This document shows, in pieces, positions 19,929-54,462 of a stretch of DNA of 64,000 nucleotides. The stretch lies in NCBI GenBank assembly GCA_018061035.1, contig JAGOUX010000001.1, positions 76,249 through 140,248 on the forward strand, in the 5' to 3' direction. The position numbers and the translations under genes are program-made. Under the pieces are notes generated by a model. The model searched no databases. It worked only from the letters and a program-made list of their open reading frames with translations, and was not told the origin of the DNA. The stretch is from Minisyncoccota bacterium (lineage in GTDB: Bacteria; Patescibacteriota; Minisyncoccia; Phycocordibacterales; UBA9973). Numbering within the stretch: position 1 is the first letter of the stretch; the number at the start of each line of letters is the position of its first letter.

Positions 19929-20025
19929 AGCGATGAAACTAAGCAAAAATATAATAACATTTATATGGAAAATTGCAAAAATTGACCCTAAACTTTAATG
20001 ATGTTAATCTTTTAGCGGAGGCAAA

Positions 20026-20244
20026 ATGGTGACACAAAGTTGTGTGAGAGAATTTTTGCGTGCAATATCTGGCGCAACAAGACCGGTCACTGATCAGACC
20101 ATGGTCACTGATCTTGGTCTGTTCCATACGACCATCGCGAAGGTTGAGATTCGTTACCGTAGAATTTTGACCATGCCCGACGAGAGCGCGGCAACCGTGC
20201 GGGACATCATTCACCAGATCGCTGGCCAAGATGACACCTTCTAG
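20026..20244 (+). CDS. hypothetical small protein (GC-rich islet)
   Basis: GGAGG is 5 nt upstream of the ATG. Composition is GC-rich. First gene of a two-gene unit. Confidence 0.4.
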   Translation: MVTQSCVREFLRAISGATRPVTDQTMVTDLGLFHTTIAKVEIRYRRILTMPDESAATVRDIIHQIAGQDDTF

Positions 20245-20253
20245 GAGAAGAAC

Positions 20254-20523
20254 ATGACTGAAGCTAATTCTTCTATTTGGTGGAGCGTGTTTTCTTTCAT
20301 CCGCTTCCACACAAACATCGAGATCGGTGAAGGCACACTGTTGTCAGACATCAAGCGTTATCCAGCAGGGCTCGTCATGTTGTGCGAGCATCACTACGGA
20401 ATCGAGCTCAACATCGACAAACCAATGTCGGAGATCACAGTGGGAAGGCTCATTCGCGCGATCTTGCAAGCTCAAGTGAGCAAAGCAAGAGAAAGGGCAA
20501 GCCAGGCTGCCTCAGAAGCCTGA
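20254..20523 (+). CDS. hypothetical small protein (GC-rich islet)
   Basis: AGGAGA RBS, 9 nt after the upstream stop. A terminator hairpin follows at 20552-20592. Confidence 0.4.
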   Translation: MTEANSSIWWSVFSFIRFHTNIEIGEGTLLSDIKRYPAGLVMLCEHHYGIELNIDKPMSEITVGRLIRAILQAQVSKARERASQAASEA

Positions 20524-20551
20524 TAGTTCTTCGGTGTATTTGCGACCAGTG

Positions 20552-20592
20552 GGCCGGATGTCTCAGACACTCCGGCCATTACTTTTTATTTT
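20552..20592 (+). terminator. rho-independent terminator (GGCCGGA-N12-TCCGGCC then a T-run)
   Basis: Read directly from the sequence. Confidence 0.6.
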
Positions 20593-20742
20593 TATATTCA
20601 AAATGAGTGTATTTAAACGAAAGCACCCCACAAAAGCTGGGCGCCTTGCGGGGTGTTGATGAAAACTATTTTATTTAAAAAAAAGAACATTTCTATTTGC
20701 CCTCCCCGCTCCGACTTTCGCCGGAGCGGGTCGCTGACATTC

Positions 20743-21129
20743 TCAGTGCAGCGTGATCTTGGGTGGTGCCTTTGGCTCCATGCCAAGGTACATCTTGCCA
20801 ATCATCATCAGGAACTCTGGCGCCGGAAGGCATGCGGCCAGAAGAACCGTCTCGTCATCGCACAGAAATACCGCAGGAACACCCTCAGTCGCTCGGTTCC
20901 CGTAACGATTGGCCGCTGTTGCCTCTTCATGCAGTTCACCAAAGTGAACTGCACAAATGTCGCTGAACTCGATGTGGTTCACCAACAACCACTCGCGAAT
21001 CTGTTCACAGCGTGGATCGTGCGGATTCGGACCGAAGTACACCCGAATATTTGGATTGACCAATTCAGTCACAATACCTCCACGAAAGAAAGCTGCCTCG
21101 GTACCATGATGGTGCGAGGCAGAGATCAA
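20743..21129 (-). CDS. thioredoxin-fold (glutaredoxin-like) protein, start uncertain (no ATG; TTG/GTG)
   Basis: beta-alpha-beta order ...IRVYFGPNPHDPRCEQIREWLL...TEGVPAVFL.DDETVL resembles the glutaredoxin layout with a single Cys. GC-rich. Confidence 0.35.
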   Translation of the reverse strand: MISASHHHGTEAAFFRGGIVTELVNPNIRVYFGPNPHDPRCEQIREWLLVNHIEFSDICAVHFGELHEEATAANRYGNRATEGVPAVFLCDDETVLLAACLPAPEFLMMIGKMYLGMEPKAPPKITLH

Positions 21130-21222
21130 AACCGATATTACACTAGAAGAAAGGACAAACGAGATGTACTCCCCGTCCTCGCTCCGACTGGTATTCGGAG
21201 CGAGGAATCGGTCAGGTGGCGC

Positions 21223-21414
21223 CTATTCGCGATCGCCGCCGCAGTTCTTGCAAATGAGCACTCCGCCGAGACGGAGAAGCGGCTCACCGCAGGTCTCGCA
21301 ACTCAACTCCACAACCTGCGAAGGACGCCGGGCGATGATCTTCTGGACCATTGCGCGGGCCGCCGCAGTCTTCGACGGGTCGAACACGAGCCCGAGTTCA
21401 GCACATGTTTGCAT
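21223..21414 (-). CDS. small zinc-ribbon protein
   Basis: AAGGAG RBS 7 nt before the ATG. Two CxxC pairs (CETCG...CKNCG). Confidence 0.5.
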   Translation of the reverse strand: MQTCAELGLVFDPSKTAAARAMVQKIIARRPSQVVELSCETCGEPLLRLGGVLICKNCGGDRE

Positions 21415-21508
21415 GGTACATCTCCTTAATCAACATAATACCCCTATTTATCAAATCTGTCAATAATATTTAATTGAAAAAGAAGAGGCATAATGCTACT
21501 CTGTCTCT

Positions 21509-22255
21509 ATGGATAATGTCCAAATAATCATATTGGCCGCGGGTAAAGGCACACGAATGAACTCCGAGGAGCCCAAGGCTCTTGCTTTGCTCAAGGGCAA
21601 GCCTTTTTTAAAGCACATACTAGAAACCCTCGAAACTCTCAACCTCGCTCTCCCGCCAGTCATTGTTGTCGGTCACAAAAAGGAGCGAATATTCGAGGTT
21701 GTCGGACCAGACTACACATATGCAAACCAGCATGAACAACTCGGCACAGGGCATGCAGTAATGTCCGCCAAAGAAAGCCTTCATGATGATCACAAAATAA
21801 TATTAGTGATCTCAACCGACCAACCTCTCATCTCAAAAGAAACAATTTTGAACATTATCGAAAAGCACAAAGCACATGGCTCTACTATCACCATGGCCAC
21901 AGCCACACTCCCCGACTTCGAGGATTGGCGCGCGGGACTGGTGAAGTTCGGCAGAATATTGCGAGATAAAAATGGCGACCTTGAAAGCATCGTGGAATTC
22001 AAAGATGCAACCGATGAGCAAAAAAATATTACCGAAGTTAATCCCGCACTGTATGCTTTTGACGCGAAGTGGCTTTGGGAAAATATTGGTAAGCTCGGCA
22101 AACAAAATGCTCAAGGCGAATACTATCTTACTGATCTGATCCACCTGGCATTCGAGCAACACAAGAATATTGAAACTGTGCCACTTTCAAACACCAACGA
22201 AGTAATCCAGCCGAATTCGCAAGAAGAGCTTGAATTATTGGAGAAATTTGCGTAA
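21509..22255 (+). CDS. sugar-phosphate nucleotidyltransferase (GlmU N-terminal-like domain only)
   Basis: LAAGKGTRM nucleotidyltransferase signature. At 248 aa it lacks the acetyltransferase hexapeptide domain. Confidence 0.7.
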
Positions 22256-41483: not shown

Positions 41484-42383
41484 TTAAGCACTCCAAATAG
41501 CAGTATTCGCGAGTGGAATGGTTCTTTTATTGGATGTCTCGAGCACGCACATTTCTCCTGCTTGTACTTCCCCCTTTTTATCCTTCATTGTTTCAGAAAG
41601 AGCATAGCCTAGAGACAGCGACGAAGACTCTATTGCGTATGAAGTAAGGATGACGAAAAGTGGTTTATTGCTGAGTACTCTCTTTACAGCTGTTAGAAGT
41701 TTCGGTAGACTCTCTTCTATTTTCCATACCTCGCCTTTTGGTCCGCGTCCAAATTTTGGCGGATCCATAATAACAGCATCGTATGTATTCCCACGCTTGG
41801 CTTCCCGCTCTAGGAATTTCAAAACATCGTCTTCGATGATGCGCATTGGTGATTCTACTAGACCAGTATTTAAATTTTGATTTTCTTTAGCAAGCTTGAG
41901 CGACTGCGATGATGCATCAAGATGAGTGACATCTGCTCCTGCACGAAGCGCAAAAAGACTCGCGACACCGGTATATCCGAACAAGTTCAAGAACTTAGGT
42001 TTTTGTAAAGGACTGTCCTTTACAAAACTACCTATTTTTTGTTCGATAAAATCCCAATGAGTGGCTTGCTCAGGGAAAAAGCTCAAGTGGCGAAATGGTG
42101 TTGGTGATGCATGGAATTTAATACCTTTGTATTCCATTTCCCAACGTTCTGCAAATTTACGCTCCATCTTCCACCCTGGCTTTGCACCAGTCTTCGCAGA
42201 CCAGAATTTACCATCTATATCTGTCCATTCTTTTTTGCTTAATGTCTTGGGCCAGACTGCATCCTCATATGGACGCACAAAGTTATGCCGTCCGAAACGC
42301 TCAAGCTTCTCGCCTTCTCCTGTATCTAGGAGCTCGTAATCAGTCCAGTCTTCGGTATAAAAAATTTTAATTTTGTGGTCCAT
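41484..42383 (-). CDS. class I SAM-dependent rRNA methyltransferase (RlmI/RlmK-like)
   Basis: FLNLFGYTGVASLFAL (motif I), the DPPKFGRG motif, and an N-terminal EEHD-like domain. Confidence 0.65.
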   Translation of the reverse strand: MDHKIKIFYTEDWTDYELLDTGEGEKLERFGRHNFVRPYEDAVWPKTLSKKEWTDIDGKFWSAKTGAKPGWKMERKFAERWEMEYKGIKFHASPTPFRHLSFFPEQATHWDFIEQKIGSFVKDSPLQKPKFLNLFGYTGVASLFALRAGADVTHLDASSQSLKLAKENQNLNTGLVESPMRIIEDDVLKFLEREAKRGNTYDAVIMDPPKFGRGPKGEVWKIEESLPKLLTAVKRVLSNKPLFVILTSYAIESSSLSLGYALSETMKDKKGEVQAGEMCVLETSNKRTIPLANTAIWSA

Positions 42384-43375
42384 TATATCTTAAACTCTAT
42401 CACATCCCCATCTTTTACAATATATTCCTTGCCTTCAGTGCGGACCAACCCCTTAGACCGTGCGGCAGCATATGAACCTGAATCAAGAAGATCTTTCCAG
42501 AAGACTACTTCCGCACGGATAAACTTATCTTTAAAGTCTGTATGAATTGCAGTTCCAGCTATCGGCGCAGTGGAACCTACCTTTATAGTCCAAGCACGAG
42601 TCTCGTCTTCACCAGTAGTGAGGAATGTTTCCAGCCCGAGAAGTTTGTAACTGCCAGTGATCAGGTCATCAAAACCTTTTTCAAAAACTGAATCAATATG
42701 AACAAATGGTCCAGGTACGGCAAACTCCACATTCTGGTTTGCTTCAGAAGTATTGAGCACATAGAGCATTGGCTTGAGGGTTAGGAGGTTGAGGGACTTG
42801 ATTCTAAACTTTTCATCATCATTAAGCTCCACATCTGTAGCCATTCTGCCTTCTTCGAGAACTTTTTCAATTTTCTTTAAAATAGCTTCTTCCGCTATTG
42901 CATCCTTGCTTCCCTTTTTCAAATCACCAGCCAAAGTTTTAATTCTTTTTGAAACTATTTCCATATCAGAGAGTACAAGCTCGAGGTTGATCACACCAAT
43001 ATCAGAAAGCGGGTCAATCTTGTTCGCAACGTGAATCACTGATGGATCTTCAAACACTCTCACCACATGAGCGATAGCATCAACCTCTCGAATATTTGAG
43101 AGAAATTTATTTCCAAGTCCTTCACCCTTAGAAGCACCAGCCACAAGACCCGCAATGTCTACGAATTCAATGACAGCTGGAATTGTCTTAGCAGATTTAG
43201 AAAATCCTGAGAGCTTCTGCACTCGCTCATCCGGCACTGGCACAATGCCTACTGATGGATCAATGGTGCAGAATGGATAGTTTTCTGCCGGAACGCTTTT
43301 CTTTGTAAGCGCGTTAAAAAGCGTGGACTTCCCCACATTCGGCAATCCGACAATACCGATAGCTAGTGCAGACAT
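42383..43375 (-). CDS. ychF: ribosome-binding ATPase YchF (Obg-family GTPase)
   Basis: G1 GIVGLPNVGKSTLFNALT and a C-terminal TGS domain. 330 aa. Confidence 0.85.
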   Translation of the reverse strand: MSALAIGIVGLPNVGKSTLFNALTKKSVPAENYPFCTIDPSVGIVPVPDERVQKLSGFSKSAKTIPAVIEFVDIAGLVAGASKGEGLGNKFLSNIREVDAIAHVVRVFEDPSVIHVANKIDPLSDIGVINLELVLSDMEIVSKRIKTLAGDLKKGSKDAIAEEAILKKIEKVLEEGRMATDVELNDDEKFRIKSLNLLTLKPMLYVLNTSEANQNVEFAVPGPFVHIDSVFEKGFDDLITGSYKLLGLETFLTTGEDETRAWTIKVGSTAPIAGTAIHTDFKDKFIRAEVVFWKDLLDSGSYAAARSKGLVRTEGKEYIVKDGDVIEFKI

Positions 43376-44969
43376 TGATATTTGATATTATTGGAACGAA
43401 TCCATAAACTTGTAATTTCTCTCTGGTACCGACCGCTTTATCTATAATACCTCTTACTATCTCCTTTTTTTCATCAAAACTCAAGTTTTTGAGTTCTTCT
43501 GGTGCATTTTGAGCAAAAGCTTCTATGTCACCCAACTTGGGAACCACACCCCCTTCTTTTTTACGATCCTCCGTTATTTCACTTATTTGGACATTAAGAA
43601 AAGAAATCTTGTCTCTAATTGGTATTGTATATTCTTTAAACTGATCTAAAGTAATAGCCCCAGCGCCATAAGCTTTAGCGTATCGATCTTCCTGGTTTTT
43701 TAATTTGGAGATCTCTCTTTCTGTTTCTTGGATGTTTATTGTCGGCCCTAGAATTGTCTGATTCTTAAGGTTGAGCCACACTTCAGCTTGTTCCAATAGT
43801 CGTTCCGGTGAACTTATAAGCTGAATTATCTCCTGCCAAACCATTTTATCAACTATACGTGCATTCAAACCTTTTTCATTACAAAGAGAAGGTAAAGGAA
43901 ATGAATTAACTCTACCAGAACAACGATAATATAAATGCTTACCTTTTTGAGGACCTTCCCCAGCTCGTCTTTGCCCGCAAACACACCATATCTGACCAGC
44001 TAGCAGATACTCGTTTTTGGTGTTTCTTCTTGAAAGAATGAAGCTTGATTTCAACTTCTGCCCAACTCTATTAAATACATCCTCGTCAATAATTTTTGGT
44101 ACAGGAATCTTTATCCATTCGCTTTCAGGTTTCATTTTTCTACTCGTTTTCTTGATCTTTTTGTAAGTCTCTTGCTTTAGTGGTTTTTGTGGTACCACAG
44201 CATACGAAGCTCCATAATGAGCTTCACCGATATAAGTTCTATTTCGCAAGAGAGTGCTCAATGTGCTCGTACTCCAAACACCTCGTTCGCTTTTTCGTGG
44301 TTTTATTTCTAATTCTTGAAGTTTTCGTACTAGTGCTCTTAAGGTCAAACCCTCATCATCTACCCATGAAAAAAGCTTCTTAACGGTCTCTGCTTCCTCT
44401 TCATTGACTTCGTAGTGACCTTGAGCAAAATCCGAATCTCCTCTTTTACCCTTTTTGATTAGAAGCGTATAACCATAAGGGGCTTGGCTACTGACTACAT
44501 GTCCTTCCTTAGCTTTCCGTACTTTACCCAATCTAAATCTCTCTTTGATTTTCATTCTTTCATACTCAGTAAAAACTCCTCTCATTTTATACATGATGAT
44601 ATCTTCGTCAGTTTTTGCTTGAGGGATTGTCACAAAGAGGACATCTATTTCTAACTCTTTGAGTTCTTCCATCACCACCTCTTGCCACGAACCACGCCTG
44701 GCAAGCCTATCTGGATCATACATTAAAACAGCTTCCCAGCTTTTTTTCTTCGCGTCCATACGAAGCTGATCAAGACCTGGCCTCGCTAGACTGTCACCAC
44801 TCCATCCATTATCTTCATATTCTTGCACAATAGTATAACCATTTTTTTGGGCAAATTCTTTGATAGCTAAGTTTTGAGTTTCAATAGTTCCCTCGTTTTC
44901 TTGATTCGAAGTAGACACCCGCTTATATGTAGCAACTAGCTTATTTACTTTTTTTATTTCTTCAATCAT
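43314..44969 (-). CDS. large serine recombinase (integrase)
   Basis: N-terminal resolvase catalytic domain (YKRVSTSNQ...), recombinase domain, zinc-ribbon Cys cluster (CVCGQ...YYRCSGR) and coiled coil. The final 20 codons read into the ychF start region. Confidence 0.85.
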   Translation of the reverse strand: MIEEIKKVNKLVATYKRVSTSNQENEGTIETQNLAIKEFAQKNGYTIVQEYEDNGWSGDSLARPGLDQLRMDAKKKSWEAVLMYDPDRLARRGSWQEVVMEELKELEIDVLFVTIPQAKTDEDIIMYKMRGVFTEYERMKIKERFRLGKVRKAKEGHVVSSQAPYGYTLLIKKGKRGDSDFAQGHYEVNEEEAETVKKLFSWVDDEGLTLRALVRKLQELEIKPRKSERGVWSTSTLSTLLRNRTYIGEAHYGASYAVVPQKPLKQETYKKIKKTSRKMKPESEWIKIPVPKIIDEDVFNRVGQKLKSSFILSRRNTKNEYLLAGQIWCVCGQRRAGEGPQKGKHLYYRCSGRVNSFPLPSLCNEKGLNARIVDKMVWQEIIQLISSPERLLEQAEVWLNLKNQTILGPTINIQETEREISKLKNQEDRYAKAYGAGAITLDQFKEYTIPIRDKISFLNVQISEITEDRKKEGGVVPKLGDIEAFAQNAPEELKNLSFDEKKEIVRGIIDKAVGTREKLQVYGFVPIISNINVCTSYRYCRIAECGEVHAF

Positions 44970-45885: not shown

Positions 45886-48228
45886 CTAAAAAGGTATATC
45901 TTCCACATTAAGAAAAGACTTTTTTGGTAACTCCGGAGGCAGTTCATCAATTCCGTCTTGATCTTTTTCTACTACCGAACTTAAACCATGAAAAAGGTCA
46001 ACATCTTGCAGCGATGAAGCGATGGGAGCGATGTTTTCCTTAATCTTACGGATGGTTATCTTCCTATGTTGTCCACCTTCTCTTTCAACATAAATTCCTA
46101 CTTCTTCTAAGGTAGTTTTTAATGCCATGATATTACGACTAAAAACTTGAGGTGTATCTGGTATTTTTGTACGCCAGTCATCAATATATTTTAAACGTAA
46201 AATGGCAAGAAGTTCGGTAGCACTACCACTCCACTCTTCTTTATCAGCCATAAATTCCACAATGAAGGATGCTTCAAGGTTGTCATTAATAACTTCATCA
46301 CTCTGAAGATTTATATTCTGTGTATATGCACGCAAAAACTCTGCTCTGCTGTGACCCAATGCTTCAGCAATAGCACAACCCCATAATGTAAAATCAGCCA
46401 TGCGTGGAAGATTAGTCTCTTTTACTGTAGGGCGTATTTCCATAGCTTTAGATAACACAGTGAAGATAGAACCAAGCAATGACGGCAATTCAGCAGTGAA
46501 GTTATCTAGCATATCCTTCTCTTCCTTGCGCTTACCCTTTGGAATTCTCGCAAGGTCCACCAGGACACTACGCTCTAGTAGGTCTGGCTTGAGTGAAGGT
46601 AGATTAATGCCATTAAGTGATATACACCTCTTAAAGTTGTAGATAATATCGCTATCATCGCTGTATAGCTCCCGTTTAGAAAAGCCACTGCCTGTAACGG
46701 CTCTACACAATATGTCAGATAGTTCAGACGGTATTATGGTGATATTGTCGAAAACTAAAAACCAGTGGTGTGCTAATTGCTGTATCAATTCTTTCTGATC
46801 CTTCGGAAAATCACTACCATCAATCTTTGAGGGGTCAATTATCTTTTTGAGTATTTTAGATACAGTTGATTTTGCCGAACCTTGGGGACCATGAAAATAT
46901 ATCATTGGGTGTGGAAATCCAGGGATGAAACAACAAATTAACCATACTGCGAGCAATAATTTGTGGTCCTCGCGCTCAATGTTTATATAACTAAATAGAT
47001 TAAAAATATCACCACCTAACACAGGAGTCACTTGAGGTTGCTGATGGTTATACGTTCGAAAAAGAATAGGTGGATTCTTTTCTATGGTCCACCCAGTAGC
47101 AGATATTTTTACGCTTTGCCATTCACTATCGCTTAAAAAATAAAATATAGAATCACCTTTCTGGTTCACCCTATTTTCTAGTTCATATTGATTTCCTTCA
47201 TATGCCGCATGACCCTCAACTGTGTTTAGAGCAGTACTAATAGCATCATTGTTTGGCGTTTTAGAATACTTTTTCCAGTATTCTCTTCCAAGCCACATTT
47301 TTGTTTTCTTACTTCTGCACACATAGTATTCTTTATGATTATCAACAGGAAATTGTATGTATGGTTCATCTAGTTCACTACAAAAAAGTAGTATATCAGG
47401 GGATTCTAAAACTAGACTTACAATTTTATCGGCCTGACTTGTTGCTTTTTCCTTTCTCTCTTCTTCTTTATTTATATGATATTTTTTTATACTTTCCCAA
47501 ACCCCTCTTAATTCCTTTTCTGACATAGGCGGAATATTTTCACTATTCCAAACTTTAAAGTTTTTCCAGCCTACGCTTTCCCATAATTCCACAGGAGCAG
47601 AAAACAGCAACCTTCCTGCCATAGAAGCGGCAGTGTCATTTCTTAAGCCTTTGGGAGCGCCGTCTTTGAATGACAACCATTTTTTGTCGTTATTGCCTTG
47701 AGTCCTAATTTGAACAACCCATTCTGGCAGTTCAGAAAAATCAGAATCATCTGGCGAGATGAGCCACTCATACTCCCCTTTAGTACTTACGGACGGTGGT
47801 GCTACTACATAACCCCCATCCCCTCTTATATCTGTTAATTCTCGAACCCTTGTCCCATTTGAGACCTTCTCACTTGGGTGTTTGTAATAAAAATGCATAC
47901 CTCCCCCTCCAGTTTTAGCCGCCACTGTTGGCAGATACCCAGAACTATTGCCGTCTTTTTCAACATCTACAACAACGACCCCTGAAATCTTTCCAGTTAC
48001 GATAGCGATGCCTGCGTTTGGCCATACCGTCCACCAATTATTTATTTCTTCTTGTGTAGGAAATCTACTTTGAAATTCTGCCCAACTTATAAATGGTTTT
48101 TTATCAGCTTGAACAGGTATTATACTGAAACCTTTTCTAAGATAATGTAATGCCCAATCTAGATTTGTTTTTTTATTCTCTGGTGACATAAATATACAAA
48201 GCCGATGACATGTAACGCCTAGTAACAC
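45886..48228 (-). CDS. replicase: bifunctional DNA primase/polymerase (Prim-Pol) N-terminal domain fused to a P-loop SF3-like helicase/primase C-terminal domain
   Basis: Prim-Pol motifs VVVVDVEKDG and GGGMHFYYKH, then Walker A GPQGSAKST and Walker B LVFDNI. The listed start is GTG; an in-frame ATG lies 13 codons downstream (MSPENKK). Confidence 0.8.
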   Translation of the reverse strand: MLLGVTCHRLCIFMSPENKKTNLDWALHYLRKGFSIIPVQADKKPFISWAEFQSRFPTQEEINNWWTVWPNAGIAIVTGKISGVVVVDVEKDGNSSGYLPTVAAKTGGGGMHFYYKHPSEKVSNGTRVRELTDIRGDGGYVVAPPSVSTKGEYEWLISPDDSDFSELPEWVVQIRTQGNNDKKWLSFKDGAPKGLRNDTAASMAGRLLFSAPVELWESVGWKNFKVWNSENIPPMSEKELRGVWESIKKYHINKEEERKEKATSQADKIVSLVLESPDILLFCSELDEPYIQFPVDNHKEYYVCRSKKTKMWLGREYWKKYSKTPNNDAISTALNTVEGHAAYEGNQYELENRVNQKGDSIFYFLSDSEWQSVKISATGWTIEKNPPILFRTYNHQQPQVTPVLGGDIFNLFSYINIEREDHKLLLAVWLICCFIPGFPHPMIYFHGPQGSAKSTVSKILKKIIDPSKIDGSDFPKDQKELIQQLAHHWFLVFDNITIIPSELSDILCRAVTGSGFSKRELYSDDSDIIYNFKRCISLNGINLPSLKPDLLERSVLVDLARIPKGKRKEEKDMLDNFTAELPSLLGSIFTVLSKAMEIRPTVKETNLPRMADFTLWGCAIAEALGHSRAEFLRAYTQNINLQSDEVINDNLEASFIVEFMADKEEWSGSATELLAILRLKYIDDWRTKIPDTPQVFSRNIMALKTTLEEVGIYVEREGGQHRKITIRKIKENIAPIASSLQDVDLFHGLSSVVEKDQDGIDELPPELPKKSFLNVEDIPF

Positions 48229-49518: not shown

Positions 49519-52500
49519 TTACAGCTCCCAATATTTACTTGGATTCCTCTCCCGTAATATATTTATTATCTTTTTAGCATCTTTGTTGGTTTTTGATAGT
49601 TCTTTAATAGTAGATACTAAATGGTCCGACTCATGAAGTTCTATTCCTTTAGGAAAGGAGAAGAATATTTTTGCAGCCTGCATGAAGTTATCTTTGCCTA
49701 CTTTTTCGTACAATAATTCCATAATATTGGTATGATACAGAGAAGGATACCAATAAACTTCTGATCTATTCCCTTTTTTTAGTTCTTTTTCGTAAAATTT
49801 CTTTTCAATCTTTAAACATTTAACTAACAAGTTAAACCATTTACTACTATGCTTATCTACACTCCTGAATTTATGCTCAATAGTCTGGTAAATCAAATTG
49901 AAAATGTTATGTGCATAAACGTCTGAAAGTAAGTCAAAGTATTCAATCGTCAAATTAATACATTTATCTATGTTATCTTCAGGTGAAACTTCACGCATCG
50001 TGTGTTCAGCCATTGAAGCAAATCGAAAACAACTATCCGGATTTTCTTTTTGTAATTTTTTTATAGTTTTAATTAAAATCGCCTTGAATTTTCTTTGATC
50101 GTATTTTTCTGGGCCTAAATCGTCATACAACCCTGGGGCACTAAATCTCCATTTTTTATATGTATTTTTCCTAAACTCAGCATAATATAAGAACAAGGCC
50201 GCAGACTCTTCCGTAACGTCTATTGGTAATTTAGTGAGAGCATTAACTAATCGAAGGGCTTCTGTCTCATTAAGCGAGCGTATACGATCAAAAACATGCA
50301 ATACACTCTTTGTCATAGCTTTTTGGACATTTAAGGGCCACAGAATCAACCTATCTAATAAATCGAATGCTATGTTTTCAATATCTTTTGATATTTGTAG
50401 AGCTTTCTTTTTATCGTTATTAAGAAATAAGGTATCACGATCACTCGGTAAAACTGTTAGGCGCACAGAGGCAAGCTGAGCAAGAGCATAGGATCCCATA
50501 TGTATTGCATAATAGTTTTTATCTTGCACTAATCTTTCGGTCAGATTAATTATCTTTCCTAAAAATTCTCTCCCTTCTAGCACAGAGCAGTTCATTAAAA
50601 CCCATCCACACCAACCCCTGACAGATGTAATACTGTGAGGTTCTTTTCCTCCCTCTATTCTCTTATGTTCATTATGTTCGTTATTTTTTTCTTGAGGATC
50701 TTGGCCAGGCATGTATGGATCAGGATCTTCCATAAAAATTTCAACAACTCTTAATGCCTCTTTTATTTTTTTATATTTAGCTAGCCTGTCAGCAAATTGT
50801 AAAATCGCAGACCTATGGCCTCCGATAGGAAATCTAATATATATTTTCTCTATATTGTTATCTAACTCGTTCAAAGCAGGATTTACAATATTCTCATATA
50901 TTTGCATAGTTGTTTCTTCACTATCTTTTGTGTTTTCATTTATATTGAGAAGACCATGAGTGTAGATAGCTTGTTGGTCTGGGCTAAGTACTTTTTTGCT
51001 TTCAAGTAGTCTAAAAATATCCAAACCCTGTGAGAAATCTTTCAATAAAATGTCATGCAAAAGACGAGCAAGTTCAAAAGCACTAAAGTGATCGCTCTTT
51101 TCTGACTCTCGATATTCACTTGTTATAACTAACTTGAATAAATAGATAGCAAAATCAATATCATTTTCTAGGAAGTTTCTAATTGTCGAAGTAGTATCCA
51201 TATCTGACATGAAACGATTATAATACTTAGGATTTTTGAACCATTTTTTTAATTCTTCGCGAGCTTTCTCATGACCTTTTTTTGCTAACTCACTTACAAC
51301 TTTTTCTACAAATGGATTAACTGGCACATTATATTTTTCCGTAGTTAATCTGATTAAATTCCACTTCTTAGAATCTGAAATGGTCGAACCCATTGTTGCC
51401 TGATAAATTAAATCGGATTTATGAGGAATACCTTTTCTCGACATAACAAACTCCCTCAGTATCTTAAATGCTTCTCCTGATATTTTTAGGTCTTCACTAG
51501 AATAACGCTGAAAAACAATTTCATATACAGATCTATTTAAGAAATCTGGTCTGTTTTTTGAAACTTTACTGGTTTGGTTAATGCAATAACTTTTAATAAA
51601 CTTCCAGCCCTTAGTTTTATCTTTATTGTAATATTGTAAAATACATGGAGCGAGAATAAATCCAATAAAATGCCTGTCTTCGATGTGATAATTACTTCCC
51701 CAGAAAGCTGTACCCCCACCCATGTGCTCCCAACCCTTAAATTCAAGCTTCTTACCAATCTTTTTGTAGTAGCGATCAAACTGACCAATAATTACTTTCA
51801 ACAAAACAGGAAATCTATGAGGAAAATCTTCATTTAGCCATTCTTTTAGAATATCGTAGACTTCTTTTGGGGCGTAATGATTAAACTGGCCATCGTCACG
51901 TGTGATGTTGAAAGAAGAAGTAAGTAACTTAAATATTTTCTGTTTTAATTCAAAATCTCCTTGTTTAAATATTTGGCCAATAAGCTTACAAACTTCTGCC
52001 TTCTCCCATTCCAAGTGGCTGTCATTATTACTCTTTAAGTAGAAAAATTCATCTTTATTGTAGCTAATAAGATCTTGTGTGATATTAAAAGCAATATTTA
52101 AATAATTTTCCCCATCTTTATTTTCGATAATTTTCTTCAAAATTTTAATAACTGACGTACTAAAGAAATCTGAAGAACTATAATACCCCCTAATAGTTCT
52201 AGAATGACTTTTAATATAGCTAAGTGCGTATTCTTTATTTTTTATCGTTGTTAAATTATTTTCAAAAACATTAAAAATACCAAAGGAAAATGGGTGCACC
52301 TTGTTTAACTTCCACAAACTACTCCATTTCCTCAAATCTAAGTCCTGACGATTCTTTAGACGGTCCATAGCAAATGACATAAGATCCCATCTGGCCGAAA
52401 AGGCAGACAGAGAACCAGTACCCCATTTAATACCCTTATGTCCATTTATATTTTTTTCTAAAAGAAAAAATTGTTTCTTCTTTTTATTTTGATTATTGAA

Positions 52501-53127
52501 ATAATCGCTTCTTTCCTCAACTCTAGTCCTTAAAGCAATTACATCTTGATTAAAATCAACACGAGAGTAAGTGGAGCCTGTAGTTGATTTTTTGAAAATG
52601 TTATTTTTAAAAATACTGTCAGTAAATTCCTTTACATCTTCTTCAGGAAGCCAAAATTTAATAGCATCAGCAACTAAAGAATAATTTAATTCCTCGTCAA
52701 TTTTTTCTGATAGTTTCCAAAATTTAACTTTAGATAAAAGTTCAATACATTCATCACTATAACCTTTTCTCTTAAAAAAACTTTTAATATCTTCAAAATA
52801 TTTAATATTTTTAACTTTAGATTCTAAATCAGTACTAAGCTTTTTGCAAACTATCAAGATTTCATCCTGAACTCCAATTGATTTTTTCTTTTCTATGTTC
52901 TCTAAAATTTCTTTAAGTTGAGCATAGTCTAAATTAACTCCTTTATATTTTGATTCACAGACTATTTTTTTATCTTCTGCAAAAACAAGATCGAAATCCT
53001 CAGATTTACTTGATTCTAAATGAATATATGAAAATCTATGATCACGCAAAAACTGCAAGAATAAAGACATAGCTGCCCAATTCTGTACGTATATTCCTAT
53101 TTGTGTATTTTGTCCGGCTTTAGTCAT
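49519..53127 (-). CDS. 1202-aa protein: N-terminal PD-(D/E)xK-like nuclease domain plus a long alpha-helical repeat region, no NTPase motifs
   Basis: The N-terminus has a G-I-Y-V-Q...EDFDLVF...CESK signature that aligns with the N-terminus of the upstream 268-aa protein. I found no Walker A. It is translationally coupled, lying 4 nt after the upstream gene. Confidence 0.75.
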   Translation of the reverse strand: MTKAGQNTQIGIYVQNWAAMSLFLQFLRDHRFSYIHLESSKSEDFDLVFAEDKKIVCESKYKGVNLDYAQLKEILENIEKKKSIGVQDEILIVCKKLSTDLESKVKNIKYFEDIKSFFKRKGYSDECIELLSKVKFWKLSEKIDEELNYSLVADAIKFWLPEEDVKEFTDSIFKNNIFKKSTTGSTYSRVDFNQDVIALRTRVEERSDYFNNQNKKKKQFFLLEKNINGHKGIKWGTGSLSAFSARWDLMSFAMDRLKNRQDLDLRKWSSLWKLNKVHPFSFGIFNVFENNLTTIKNKEYALSYIKSHSRTIRGYYSSSDFFSTSVIKILKKIIENKDGENYLNIAFNITQDLISYNKDEFFYLKSNNDSHLEWEKAEVCKLIGQIFKQGDFELKQKIFKLLTSSFNITRDDGQFNHYAPKEVYDILKEWLNEDFPHRFPVLLKVIIGQFDRYYKKIGKKLEFKGWEHMGGGTAFWGSNYHIEDRHFIGFILAPCILQYYNKDKTKGWKFIKSYCINQTSKVSKNRPDFLNRSVYEIVFQRYSSEDLKISGEAFKILREFVMSRKGIPHKSDLIYQATMGSTISDSKKWNLIRLTTEKYNVPVNPFVEKVVSELAKKGHEKAREELKKWFKNPKYYNRFMSDMDTTSTIRNFLENDIDFAIYLFKLVITSEYRESEKSDHFSAFELARLLHDILLKDFSQGLDIFRLLESKKVLSPDQQAIYTHGLLNINENTKDSEETTMQIYENIVNPALNELDNNIEKIYIRFPIGGHRSAILQFADRLAKYKKIKEALRVVEIFMEDPDPYMPGQDPQEKNNEHNEHKRIEGGKEPHSITSVRGWCGWVLMNCSVLEGREFLGKIINLTERLVQDKNYYAIHMGSYALAQLASVRLTVLPSDRDTLFLNNDKKKALQISKDIENIAFDLLDRLILWPLNVQKAMTKSVLHVFDRIRSLNETEALRLVNALTKLPIDVTEESAALFLYYAEFRKNTYKKWRFSAPGLYDDLGPEKYDQRKFKAILIKTIKKLQKENPDSCFRFASMAEHTMREVSPEDNIDKCINLTIEYFDLLSDVYAHNIFNLIYQTIEHKFRSVDKHSSKWFNLLVKCLKIEKKFYEKELKKGNRSEVYWYPSLYHTNIMELLYEKVGKDNFMQAAKIFFSFPKGIELHESDHLVSTIKELSKTNKDAKKIINILRERNPSKYWEL

Positions 53128-53131
53128 ATAT

Positions 53132-53938
53132 TTATGATTTTATGGCTTCTCCTTCTTTATTCTTATCTTTTTTAATCTTAATTGGATTCGCCCTCATTCT
53201 ATCATCAATAATTTTATTGATAACATCCAAAGGTAACCTTACCTCAGTTGAGTGAAGACCTTCTTTAAGTAAATTTGATCCACGAAAACTTACAAGAAAA
53301 TCATTTATGAGATCTTTAATATTCCCCACAGAATAGATTCTTTCCAAGGAGTTCCCTTTACAGGAAATTTTATCTATCTCATCCCTGAGTCTGGCTATAA
53401 AACTTCTTACCGCCTCAGTATGTATGTCAGAACCTGGCCCTAGTGCCTTTTTAAGTATCTCAGTCGCCGCCAAAAGAACTAGTCCGTCAATTTGTCTGTG
53501 GTCATAAGCTAAATAATCAATTTCAATCCGATTTTTATCTATTCCTTTTAATGATGCTTCTATAAATCTTTTAGTTGCAGTGCTATATTTAATACCCCTA
53601 TCGTCTCCTCTAATATTTAAAAATAAATAGGCAAGAGATTTTGAAGGGTTTTTTGTAAAGATAAATTTAAAAGAGCTGTCCTTTTTGCTTGATTGTGTCG
53701 CCTTGCTAAAATAATACAATAGAATATTATTAGTTTCCTTGGCAGTTAAGCCCACTAAGCTTGATTTAACTTGATACCCAGCAAAGCTCGACTTACTCCA
53801 AATTTCAAAGTCCATTTTATCCTGCTCACAAAATACTTGTTCAAATTCTGCGTTATTACCTAAATTTTCTAAGGCAAAATAAACAGAACATAAATCTTGA
53901 TACCTGAAACCAGTTTTTGCTGATGGTCCTCCGCTCAT
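53132..53938 (-). CDS. 268-aa protein with an N-terminal PD-(D/E)xK-like (DUF4297/Cap4-nuclease-like) domain
   Basis: GFRYQDLCSVYFAL ... MDFEIW ... YQVK, i.e. D...(Q/E)xK spacing. It is paralogous to the N-terminus of the 1202-aa protein. Confidence 0.7.
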   Translation of the reverse strand: MSGGPSAKTGFRYQDLCSVYFALENLGNNAEFEQVFCEQDKMDFEIWSKSSFAGYQVKSSLVGLTAKETNNILLYYFSKATQSSKKDSSFKFIFTKNPSKSLAYLFLNIRGDDRGIKYSTATKRFIEASLKGIDKNRIEIDYLAYDHRQIDGLVLLAATEILKKALGPGSDIHTEAVRSFIARLRDEIDKISCKGNSLERIYSVGNIKDLINDFLVSFRGSNLLKEGLHSTEVRLPLDVINKIIDDRMRANPIKIKKDKNKEGEAIKS

Positions 53939-53959
53939 AATAATTAATACATTCTAGCA

Positions 53960-53999
53960 TTTAAATTAAAAATTGCTTGCTTTTAGGTGAGGTAAGCAA
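53960..53999 (-). terminator. terminator-like hairpin separating the upstream operon from the nuclease-pair operon
   Basis: On the minus strand, TTGCTTAC-N12-GCAAGCAA is followed by TTTTTAATTT. Confidence 0.45.
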
Positions 54000-54063
54000 T
54001 GGATATCCGCTCCATGCACATGACAGGTACTTTTCTGGTTTATAGTACGTGTAGGATCAGATC

Positions 54064-54462
54064 TTAGTGATAATTTATATATTGACCATACAGAGAATCC
54101 GCAATCATTTCCTTTAAAGTATCGAATTTCCGCACCCCTTCCTCTAAACTCTTAATCTTTTGCCAAACCTCATTCTCTGCCCCAACATTTATATCTAACT
54201 TATTTATATCATCCTCAAAAACAACATAAATCGTATAAGCATTTACTGCATCGTGCCAAGCATTACCTTTCACACTCGTCCGCAAAATGTCTACGAAAGG
54301 AAGTATCTCTGCTTCTGGCACAACAACCAAAAACTTATCCTTCTCATCTACCTCAAACGCTATGCCTTTTATCTTTGAAACTTCAGCTTTAAGTGAATCA
54401 AAGTCCTTAGACCAGACTCGTTTAATGTAACATACGAAAGAGTTATTGATTATATTTTCCAT
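54064..54462 (-). CDS. hypothetical protein
   Basis: 132 aa. It is the last gene of the ABC-F operon, 13 nt after the DUF1905 gene. Confidence 0.45.
   Translation of the reverse strand: MENIINNSFVCYIKRVWSKDFDSLKAEVSKIKGIAFEVDEKDKFLVVVPEAEILPFVDILRTSVKGNAWHDAVNAYTIYVVFEDDINKLDINVGAENEVWQKIKSLEEGVRKFDTLKEMIADSLYGQYINYH

Follow-up and report, generated by a model that had tools for sequence, protein, structure and literature searches.

A candidate NTPase-free defence module of Patescibacteria: a nuclease-solenoid protein and its exchangeable upstream partners

What might an operon do that couples a small predicted nuclease to a giant helical-repeat protein which carries a nuclease-like domain of its own? 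Such an operon lies on the minus strand of a 64,000-nucleotide stretch of a Minisyncoccota (Patescibacteriota) genome (assembly GCA_018061035.1, contig JAGOUX010000001.1, positions 76,249 to 140,248; this whole stretch is called the window in the following). Open reading frame (ORF) calls give a small gene of 268 residues (53132..53938) and a large gene of 1202 residues (49519..53127), both on the minus strand and separated by a spacer of 4 nucleotides (nt) between the small-gene stop and the large-gene ATG (TAA-ATAT-ATG, 53128..53131), just as an earlier note on this DNA had read them. The N-terminal approximately 210 residues of the large protein form a fused Cap4-type nuclease domain (52498..53127) and its C-terminal approximately 990 residues an all-alpha HEAT/ARM-like solenoid (49519..52497). 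We regard the operon, with a probability of about 0.55, as a module of two components that is aimed at phages or other mobile DNA and travels as cargo on a small integrative element. That it represents a candidate defence module, which manages without any nucleoside triphosphatase (NTPase) and is apparently undescribed, is credible.

Are both proteins indeed nucleases? The small protein matches the Pfam family PF14130 (Cap4_nuclease) over residues 2-62 with 33.9 bits (gathering score 26.2, E 4.8e-8), the same annotation is found precomputed on its homologues P0105-P0110, and PADLOC adds weak matches to HamA (1.7e-6, confined to the first 60 residues) and to LmuA (1.6e-5, residues 3-192). It is therefore predicted to be a stand-alone Cap4/DUF4297-type nuclease of the PD-(D/E)xK fold. 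The large protein has no match at all in Pfam, PADLOC or NCBIfam, and since it lacks a match to the PF14130 hidden Markov model (HMM), only the small protein qualifies for the family by sequence; a PDB sequence-profile search with the large N-terminus likewise returned nothing useful. An AlphaFold2 (AF2) model of residues 1-235 of the large protein (predicted local distance difference test (pLDDT) 88.9, predicted template modelling score (pTM) 0.80) finds Acinetobacter baumannii Cap4 as best structural match in Foldseek (E 6.6e-8, probability 1.0), and HerA-DUF4297 (E 1.5e-5) and LmuA (E 5.6e-5) are also matched. The Cap4-type PD-(D/E)xK fold is present together with its helical extension, about 200 residues in all. 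The close structural relatives of the nuclease domains are Cap4, AbpA, LmuA or Avs3, each of them a defence effector. The attribution of both proteins to the Cap4/DUF4297 family, which the earlier note had made from a short N-terminal signature, consequently stands, for the small protein by a Pfam match above the gathering score and for the large protein by Foldseek.

The conservation of individual residues leads to the same result. In an alignment of 54 sequences of the large family G5, Q15, Q25, E38, D44, E58 and K60 are invariant, and Q15, E38, D44, E58 and K60 are so in alignments of 41 and 35 large homologues as well, while nine homologues of the small protein have Q14, D15, E38, D43, Q56 and K58 as invariant residues at matching positions. 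The putative catalytic triad of the large protein consists of D44 (52996-52998), E58 (52954-52956) and K60 (52948-52950), and the putative catalytic residues of the small protein are D43 (53810-53812), Q56 (53771-53773) and K58 (53765-53767), a QxK variant of the active site that AbpA has as well. For DUF4297 a catalytic triad D41/E59/K61 has been published (bioRxiv 10.1101/2024.10.24.620088), which in HerA-DUF4297 corresponds to D44/E58/K60 of the large protein. Judged from these alignments, the motif residues of the two N-termini are not there by chance, and the D...(E/Q)xK arrangement proposed in the note is found in the modelled fold of the large protein and in the homologues of both. How closely are the two domains related to each other? 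The note had aligned them residue by residue; BLASTP finds no N-terminal similarity between the two proteins (E > 5), but at the profile level the alignment holds, as hhalign joins residues 4-187 of the large protein to residues 2-196 of the small one over 176 columns with a probability of 88.6% and an E-value of 2.7e-6. The paralogy is real and remote, visible to profile and structure methods only. Sequence and model together support the view that both proteins contain Cap4/DUF4297-type PD-(D/E)xK domains with conserved catalytic residues and predicted nuclease activity.

The remainder of the large protein is of a different kind. A full-length AF2 model (pLDDT 88.0) shows an all-alpha solenoid from about residue 215 on, so that the helical repeats anticipated by the earlier note are present, over some 990 residues. 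A Walker A motif is absent from all 54 large-family members, in agreement with what the note had said of the window's protein, and past residue 215 the AF2 model contains no alpha/beta NTPase domain. In a structure search the top HEAT matches of the solenoid are INTS4 and symplekin; neither DSR2 nor any other defence sensor is among the best 60 structural matches. What the family conserves as its core is this solenoid, which presumably serves as sensor or scaffold.

How widespread is this protein? A word-indexed search returned 104 large homologues, nearly all of them full-length and down to 28% identity, and when only the solenoid was used as profile, in an exhaustive search, 426 representatives at 50% identity were obtained, of which 213 have E <= 1e-30. 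The hosts belong mainly to lineages of the Candidate Phyla Radiation (CPR) and further include Gamma- and Deltaproteobacteria, Legionella sainthelensi, Armatimonadota, Actinomycetota, Margulisiibacteriota and Heimdall-, Woese- and Euryarchaeota, a taxonomic spread that is patchy and resembles that of horizontally transferred genes. The fused Cap4 domain is missing from about 18% of the solenoid genes, which encode approximately 950-1040 residues and keep the coupled upstream partner (for example P0125, P0127, P0149 and P0153, and the genes at loci L052, L056, L057, L061, L064, L066, L080, L092, L093, L098, L100 and L114). The rare relatives P0186 and P0202 have an N-terminal HTH_3 domain in place of the Cap4 domain, and P0161, P0168 and the gene of L125 have longer N-termini without assigned domain. 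At L054 (6335-9977) the large homologue is distributed over five consecutive ORFs (224, 183, 508, 174 and 80 residues) downstream of the Cap4-type small homologue P0108, which could reflect either a pseudogene or an indel-rich assembly. Only one homologue, that of Legionella sainthelensi (L001; CP025491.2, 1370589-1390161), was seen on the complete chromosome of a species that is named and can be cultivated. No partner is coupled to it; it comes straight after a tyrosine integrase gene and a gene of Mrr_cat_2-ResIII-helicase type, and a Y1 transposase as well as an nSTAND3 fragment are close by.

Do the two genes belong together? The pair recurs outside this genome, as the proposal of the earlier note implied, and all close homologues of the small protein with examined contigs adjoin a large homologue. 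For a wider census 135 loci were fetched, 84 distinct solenoid genes with sufficient upstream DNA were retained, solenoid and upstream genes were classified by HMMs built from alignments made in this analysis, and an upstream gene on the same strand was counted as partner if its end lay within some +/-60 nt of the solenoid-gene start. A coupled upstream gene precedes 77 of the 84 solenoid genes, and these genes fall into at least six unrelated classes. Among the 68 solenoid genes with fused Cap4 domain the partner is an SLFN_AlbA_2 protein (Pfam) in 17 cases, a class C protein (about 300 residues, Cap4-like, with a GFxYQD...D...YEVK motif) in 16, a class D protein (about 195 residues, Mrr-like) in 11, the Cap4 type of the window in nine, a class E protein (about 365 residues, PD-(D/E)xK-like, with a GYD...FECK motif) in five, U1 (weak CHAT match) in two and one of the others (U2-U5 and a fragment split from the N-terminal part of the large gene itself) in two, and six have no partner. 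All 15 solenoid genes without nuclease domain keep an upstream partner, which belongs to class D (seven), class C (three), U1 (one) or the others (four) and never to the AlbA_2, window-Cap4 or class E types; the remaining gene of the 84 is that of L125 with its long, unassigned N-terminus. Class C owes the label Cap4-like solely to its motif, because hhalign against Cap4-type families gives a weak result (E about 2e-3, probability 14-16%); class D has a sub-threshold Mrr_cat match in four of six members; and PDB sequence-profile searches with classes D and E yielded nothing useful. SLFN/AlbA_2 proteins have experimentally been shown to be antiphage effectors that are fused to varied sensors (PMC13056530). 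By these assignments most partner classes would be nucleases or nuclease-like. The dual architecture of paralogous nucleases, in which the earlier note had seen the hallmark of the system, is therefore true of the window's pair but does not define the family, as the Cap4-type partner is found at only nine of 84 loci and the fused nuclease is itself missing from part of the family.

The partner class is scattered over the tree of the large protein, and close relatives differ in it. The large proteins of L013 and L014 are 91% identical and have partners of class E and AlbA_2, respectively; those of L010 and L012 are 87% identical and have partners of the Cap4 type and of class C. In the pair L013/L014 the start codon of the large gene is exactly the point from which the DNA is similar, and the similarity resumes downstream past a 211-residue gene. 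This gene (L013 11660-12295), which is not in L014, lies between the large gene and a conserved zinc-ribbon-like gene of about 368 residues, and the latter is found after the large gene at L031 and at L049 too. A conserved third gene downstream of the pair was considered and rejected, as the downstream genes are heterogeneous; several of them encode nucleases (NERD, PDDEXK_1 and a Cas4-like DUF2779 protein). The shuffling of upstream partners follows the pattern of effector swapping that is typical of immune systems.

How are the two products tied to each other? In the window no canonical Shine-Dalgarno sequence precedes the large gene at a distance of 5-10 nt, the gap between the two genes is typically -8 to +5 nt across loci, and 16 of 17 AlbA_2 loci, with ATGA overlaps, are without a Shine-Dalgarno-like motif within 40 nt of the large-gene start. 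Translational coupling is likely genuine because the large gene usually lacks a Shine-Dalgarno sequence of its own, and the window's pair is, judging from its layout, probably coupled in this way. Moreover, the otherwise unrelated partners of the Cap4 type and of classes C and D share a similar C-terminal tail, [D/E]-G-x-x-[ILVF]-x(0-2), encoded at 53132-53160 in the window and at the same site in L007, L009, L010, L012, L019, L025, L053, L064 and L066. At the DNA level the tail corresponds to GAAGG or GAGGG 15-24 nt upstream of the large-gene ATG; an embedded canonical Shine-Dalgarno sequence was rejected as explanation since this distance is too large. The tail may serve as a peptide that docks to the solenoid, or it may be an element resembling a ribosome-binding site at long spacing. 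At three loci (L058 691-4546, L059 1021-4612, L060 1232-4823) a partner of class C or D is fused in-frame to the first approximately 97 residues of the solenoid, and the remaining solenoid follows in a different frame that overlaps by 8 nt; the junction falls at the same site in diverged sequences. Either the fusion is natural and accompanied by a frameshift or split, or one and the same assembly error has recurred. The fusion of partner and solenoid provides a Rosetta-stone link in which the partner takes the position of the Cap4 domain. Upstream of the operon, in an intergenic region of 125 nt, the hairpin that the earlier note had described as terminator-like is present with its T5 run (53967..54000, minus strand; hairpin at 53972-54000, 7-bp stem, 15-nt loop), but it is weak and AU-rich, is missed by a terminator scan and lies in a region that folds no better than shuffled sequences (z = -0.5), so that the terminator reading was rejected.

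In what company does the pair travel? Serine recombinases or integrases adjoin it in the window and in L001, L006, L007, L008, L009 and L053, the last being a minimal island in which a 162-residue gene, the small Cap4 gene, the large gene and a recombinase gene lie between RuvX/NUDIX and PPDK. Genes of restriction-modification (R-M) systems or helicase-nucleases adjoin the pair in L001, L005-L009 and L054, the types in L001 and L005-L009 being N6_N4_Mtase, ResIII, Eco57I, HsdR, PLDc-helicase and Mrr_cat_2-helicase. By simple count, R-M or helicase-nuclease genes and recombinases flank the pair in most of about ten annotated contexts. Housekeeping contexts, which would have spoken against the proposal of the note, are not what is found: the neighbours are those of mobile elements or R-M systems, with one locus (L003/L004) excepted that is considered below.

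In the window itself a small integrative element is suggested by several features. Downstream of the operon, on the same strand, follow a 214-residue ORF, the gene of a Prim-Pol/PriCT-1 primase-polymerase of 780 residues (45886..48228, minus strand; Pfam), which is the replication module of the element, a 164-residue ORF and a large serine recombinase gene (43314..44969, minus strand; Pfam Resolvase, Recombinase and Zn_ribbon_recom); ychF (42383-43375) comes next, and upstream of the operon lie small unannotated ORFs, a DUF1905 protein gene and the gene of an ABC-F ATPase. The guanine-plus-cytosine (GC) content is 0.30-0.34 over 48-54 kb as compared to about 0.39 elsewhere in the window. The setting assumed in the earlier note is hence supported by the adjacent recombinase and PrimPol genes and by the drop in GC content, but not by att-like direct repeats bounding the element, none of which was convincing in the window; serine recombinases do not require long repeats. 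Counted from its first possible start, the serine recombinase ORF overlaps the 5' end of ychF by 62 nt (43314-43375), and the element may be integrated at or beside the ychF start; the presumed insertion lies between ychF and a 132-residue gene (54064-54462). PADLOC detects no known defence genes elsewhere in this element. A LOOT RNA (Rfam RF03000; 48982..49100, plus strand) is matched at full length with 78.4 bits (gathering score 46.4) inside the putative element, in the 547-nt gap that separates the large gene's 3' end from the 214-residue gene; it contains the direct repeat GGCCGCAAGACCCA twice, and LOOT RNAs also occur within a few kb of the pair at two of nine other loci scanned (L006 10390-10506, plus strand; L013 2234-2368, minus strand). 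Far from the operon, a local GC peak of 0.49 as compared to about 0.40 was seen at 20001-22000 of the window, where tRNA genes flank it at 19.5-19.8 kb and at 22.3 kb.

Does the operon belong to a system that has already been named? As the earlier note had held, none matches, at least in PADLOC-DB v2 and the literature searched; no description of a nuclease-solenoid architecture was found in the literature, the coverage of which was incomplete and is no proof of novelty. Lamassu resembles the operon in combining a conserved large core protein with diverse exchangeable effectors, but LmuB is an SMC-like ATPase, whereas the core here is a HEAT-like solenoid without Walker motif, SMC coiled coil or ATPase; furthermore, the core here has its own fused nuclease and the effector is encoded by a separate, translationally coupled upstream gene. 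PADLOC finds no LmuB in the large protein, and the partner that defines Lamassu is absent. The large N-terminus finds its best structural counterpart in Cap4 of CBASS (cyclic oligonucleotide-based antiphage signalling system), which has the small protein in its Pfam family and shares the D...ExK/QxK active site; the SAVED or CARF domain and the CD-NTase or other signalling gene are, in contrast, not in this operon or its flanks, and neither Pfam nor PADLOC matches SAVED or CD-NTase in either protein or in the neighbours. Hachiman/AbpAB and HerA-DUF4297 likewise place a Cap4-like nuclease in a two-gene operon, but HamB/AbpB are superfamily-2 helicases and HerA is a hexameric ATPase, whereas the large protein has no helicase domain or motif and the operon encodes no HerA or other P-loop protein. 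Avs and other STAND proteins share the combination of effector and repeat sensor, yet their central STAND NTPase module is missing here, there being no P-loop and no PADLOC or Pfam STAND match. DSR2, like the large protein, is a single polypeptide of about 1000-1200 residues with N-terminal effector, long helical-repeat region and no NTPase; its effector, however, is a SIR2 NADase and not a Cap4 nuclease, it has no obligatory second gene, and the combination of SIR2 NADase and DSR2-type C-terminal repeat is not present in the large protein.

How could such a module work? In DSR2 the SIR2 effector reportedly sits on a HEAT-like repeat sensor that binds a phage tail tube protein, which makes DSR2 a plausible model, by analogy, for ligand-triggered activation on a repeat scaffold. 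Cap4, LmuA and HerA-DUF4297 need their nuclease domains brought together for activity. It could be imagined that in the resting state the nucleases are kept inactive on the solenoid, with the small protein docking at its N-terminal end as an exchangeable second effector. Binding of an invader-derived ligand, probably a phage protein and possibly a nucleic acid, would then shift the conformation or the oligomeric state of the solenoid and bring the nuclease domains together, whereupon invader DNA, host DNA or both would be cut. In its widest form this proposal would make the solenoid protein a new NTPase-free class of prokaryotic immune receptor that senses the invader and controls both the fused nuclease and a nuclease supplied by an upstream cassette that recombination exchanges precisely at the gene boundary, and the family a major defence family of the CPR that has hitherto gone unseen and is present also in Proteobacteria and archaea; we hold this wider form only tentatively, at somewhat less than even odds.

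Several observations weigh against a function in defence. The assignment is one of guilt by association, because no PADLOC model matches the large protein. At one well resolved locus, that of a deltaproteobacterium (L003/L004), the neighbours are regulatory and metabolic, with no defence or mobility genes nearby, and no relatives were found in phage and plasmid collections. Furthermore, classes C, D and E are nuclease-like by motifs and sub-threshold matches only, and the presence of an intact nuclease in the large protein leaves the need for a second one unexplained.

Could the pair instead stabilize the element that carries it? As an addiction module of toxin-antitoxin (TA) type, the small nuclease would be the toxin, the large protein would neutralize or regulate it, and loss of the element would kill the cell without any dedicated antiviral sensing. 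This would agree with the repeated ties of the pair to serine recombinases, often as only cargo of a minimal island (window, L053, L007, L009), with the tight translational coupling of the two genes and with toxin-like nucleases that vary while the large partner is conserved. Nevertheless, we consider it unlikely: no known TA system resembles one in which an antitoxin of 1200 residues brings along a nuclease of its own, by prediction catalytically intact, R-M genes are frequent among the neighbours, and the six loci of the fused type without coupled partner, among them that of Legionella (L001), make no sense for an antitoxin unless the fused nuclease is the toxin. TA and abortive-infection roles are, moreover, not mutually exclusive.

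Alternatively, the proteins may act in the manner of restriction, directly recognizing in DNA or RNA some feature, such as a modification, an end or a structure, and cutting it without a phage protein as trigger, by a Type IV/Mrr-like logic and without NTPase. Among the partners there are indeed nucleic-acid-binding domains of the Mrr-like, Cap4-like and AlbA_2 kinds, the pair co-localizes with methyltransferases and with Type I/III-like R genes, and INTS4 and symplekin, the top HEAT matches of the solenoid, are scaffolds of RNA-cleaving nuclease modules. HEAT solenoids are, however, mostly protein-binding scaffolds, Pfam detects no DNA-binding domain in the solenoid, though rare relatives add an N-terminal HTH, and in the known Cap4-family effectors among the structural relatives control lies with a sensor or motor of its own and not with self-recognition of DNA. 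We consider this alternative about as improbable as the addiction module. Least probable, with only a very small chance, is that the pair serves not immunity but DNA processing of the element, as a replication or transfer scaffold, or the attack of CPR episymbionts on their hosts as an inter-bacterial polymorphic toxin, for although the window's pair lies beside PrimPol and recombinase genes, variable toxin-like cassettes on a conserved large protein resemble polymorphic toxin loci and the large family is enriched in the CPR, most loci have no PrimPol, the pair also occurs in free-living Proteobacteria and archaea, partner exchange at a constant core is atypical for a replication function, and the classified coupled neighbours include no secretion-associated or immunity-like gene, no search having been aimed at signal peptides or secretion domains.

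What would a defence module of this kind mean for its hosts? CPR bacteria or Patescibacteria have tiny genomes with few recognisable defence systems, and a family of about 426 clusters at 50% identity, centred on the CPR and not in PADLOC-DB v2, would, if the reading as a defence module is true, be a substantial addition to CPR immunity. It would also constitute a rare case of a Cap4-family nuclease that is controlled without NTPase or second messenger. The exchange of effector cassettes with breakpoints at the start codon is unusually clean for a natural one and suited to study how one scaffold regulates unrelated nucleases, and the homologue of Legionella sainthelensi offers a possible experimental entry point.

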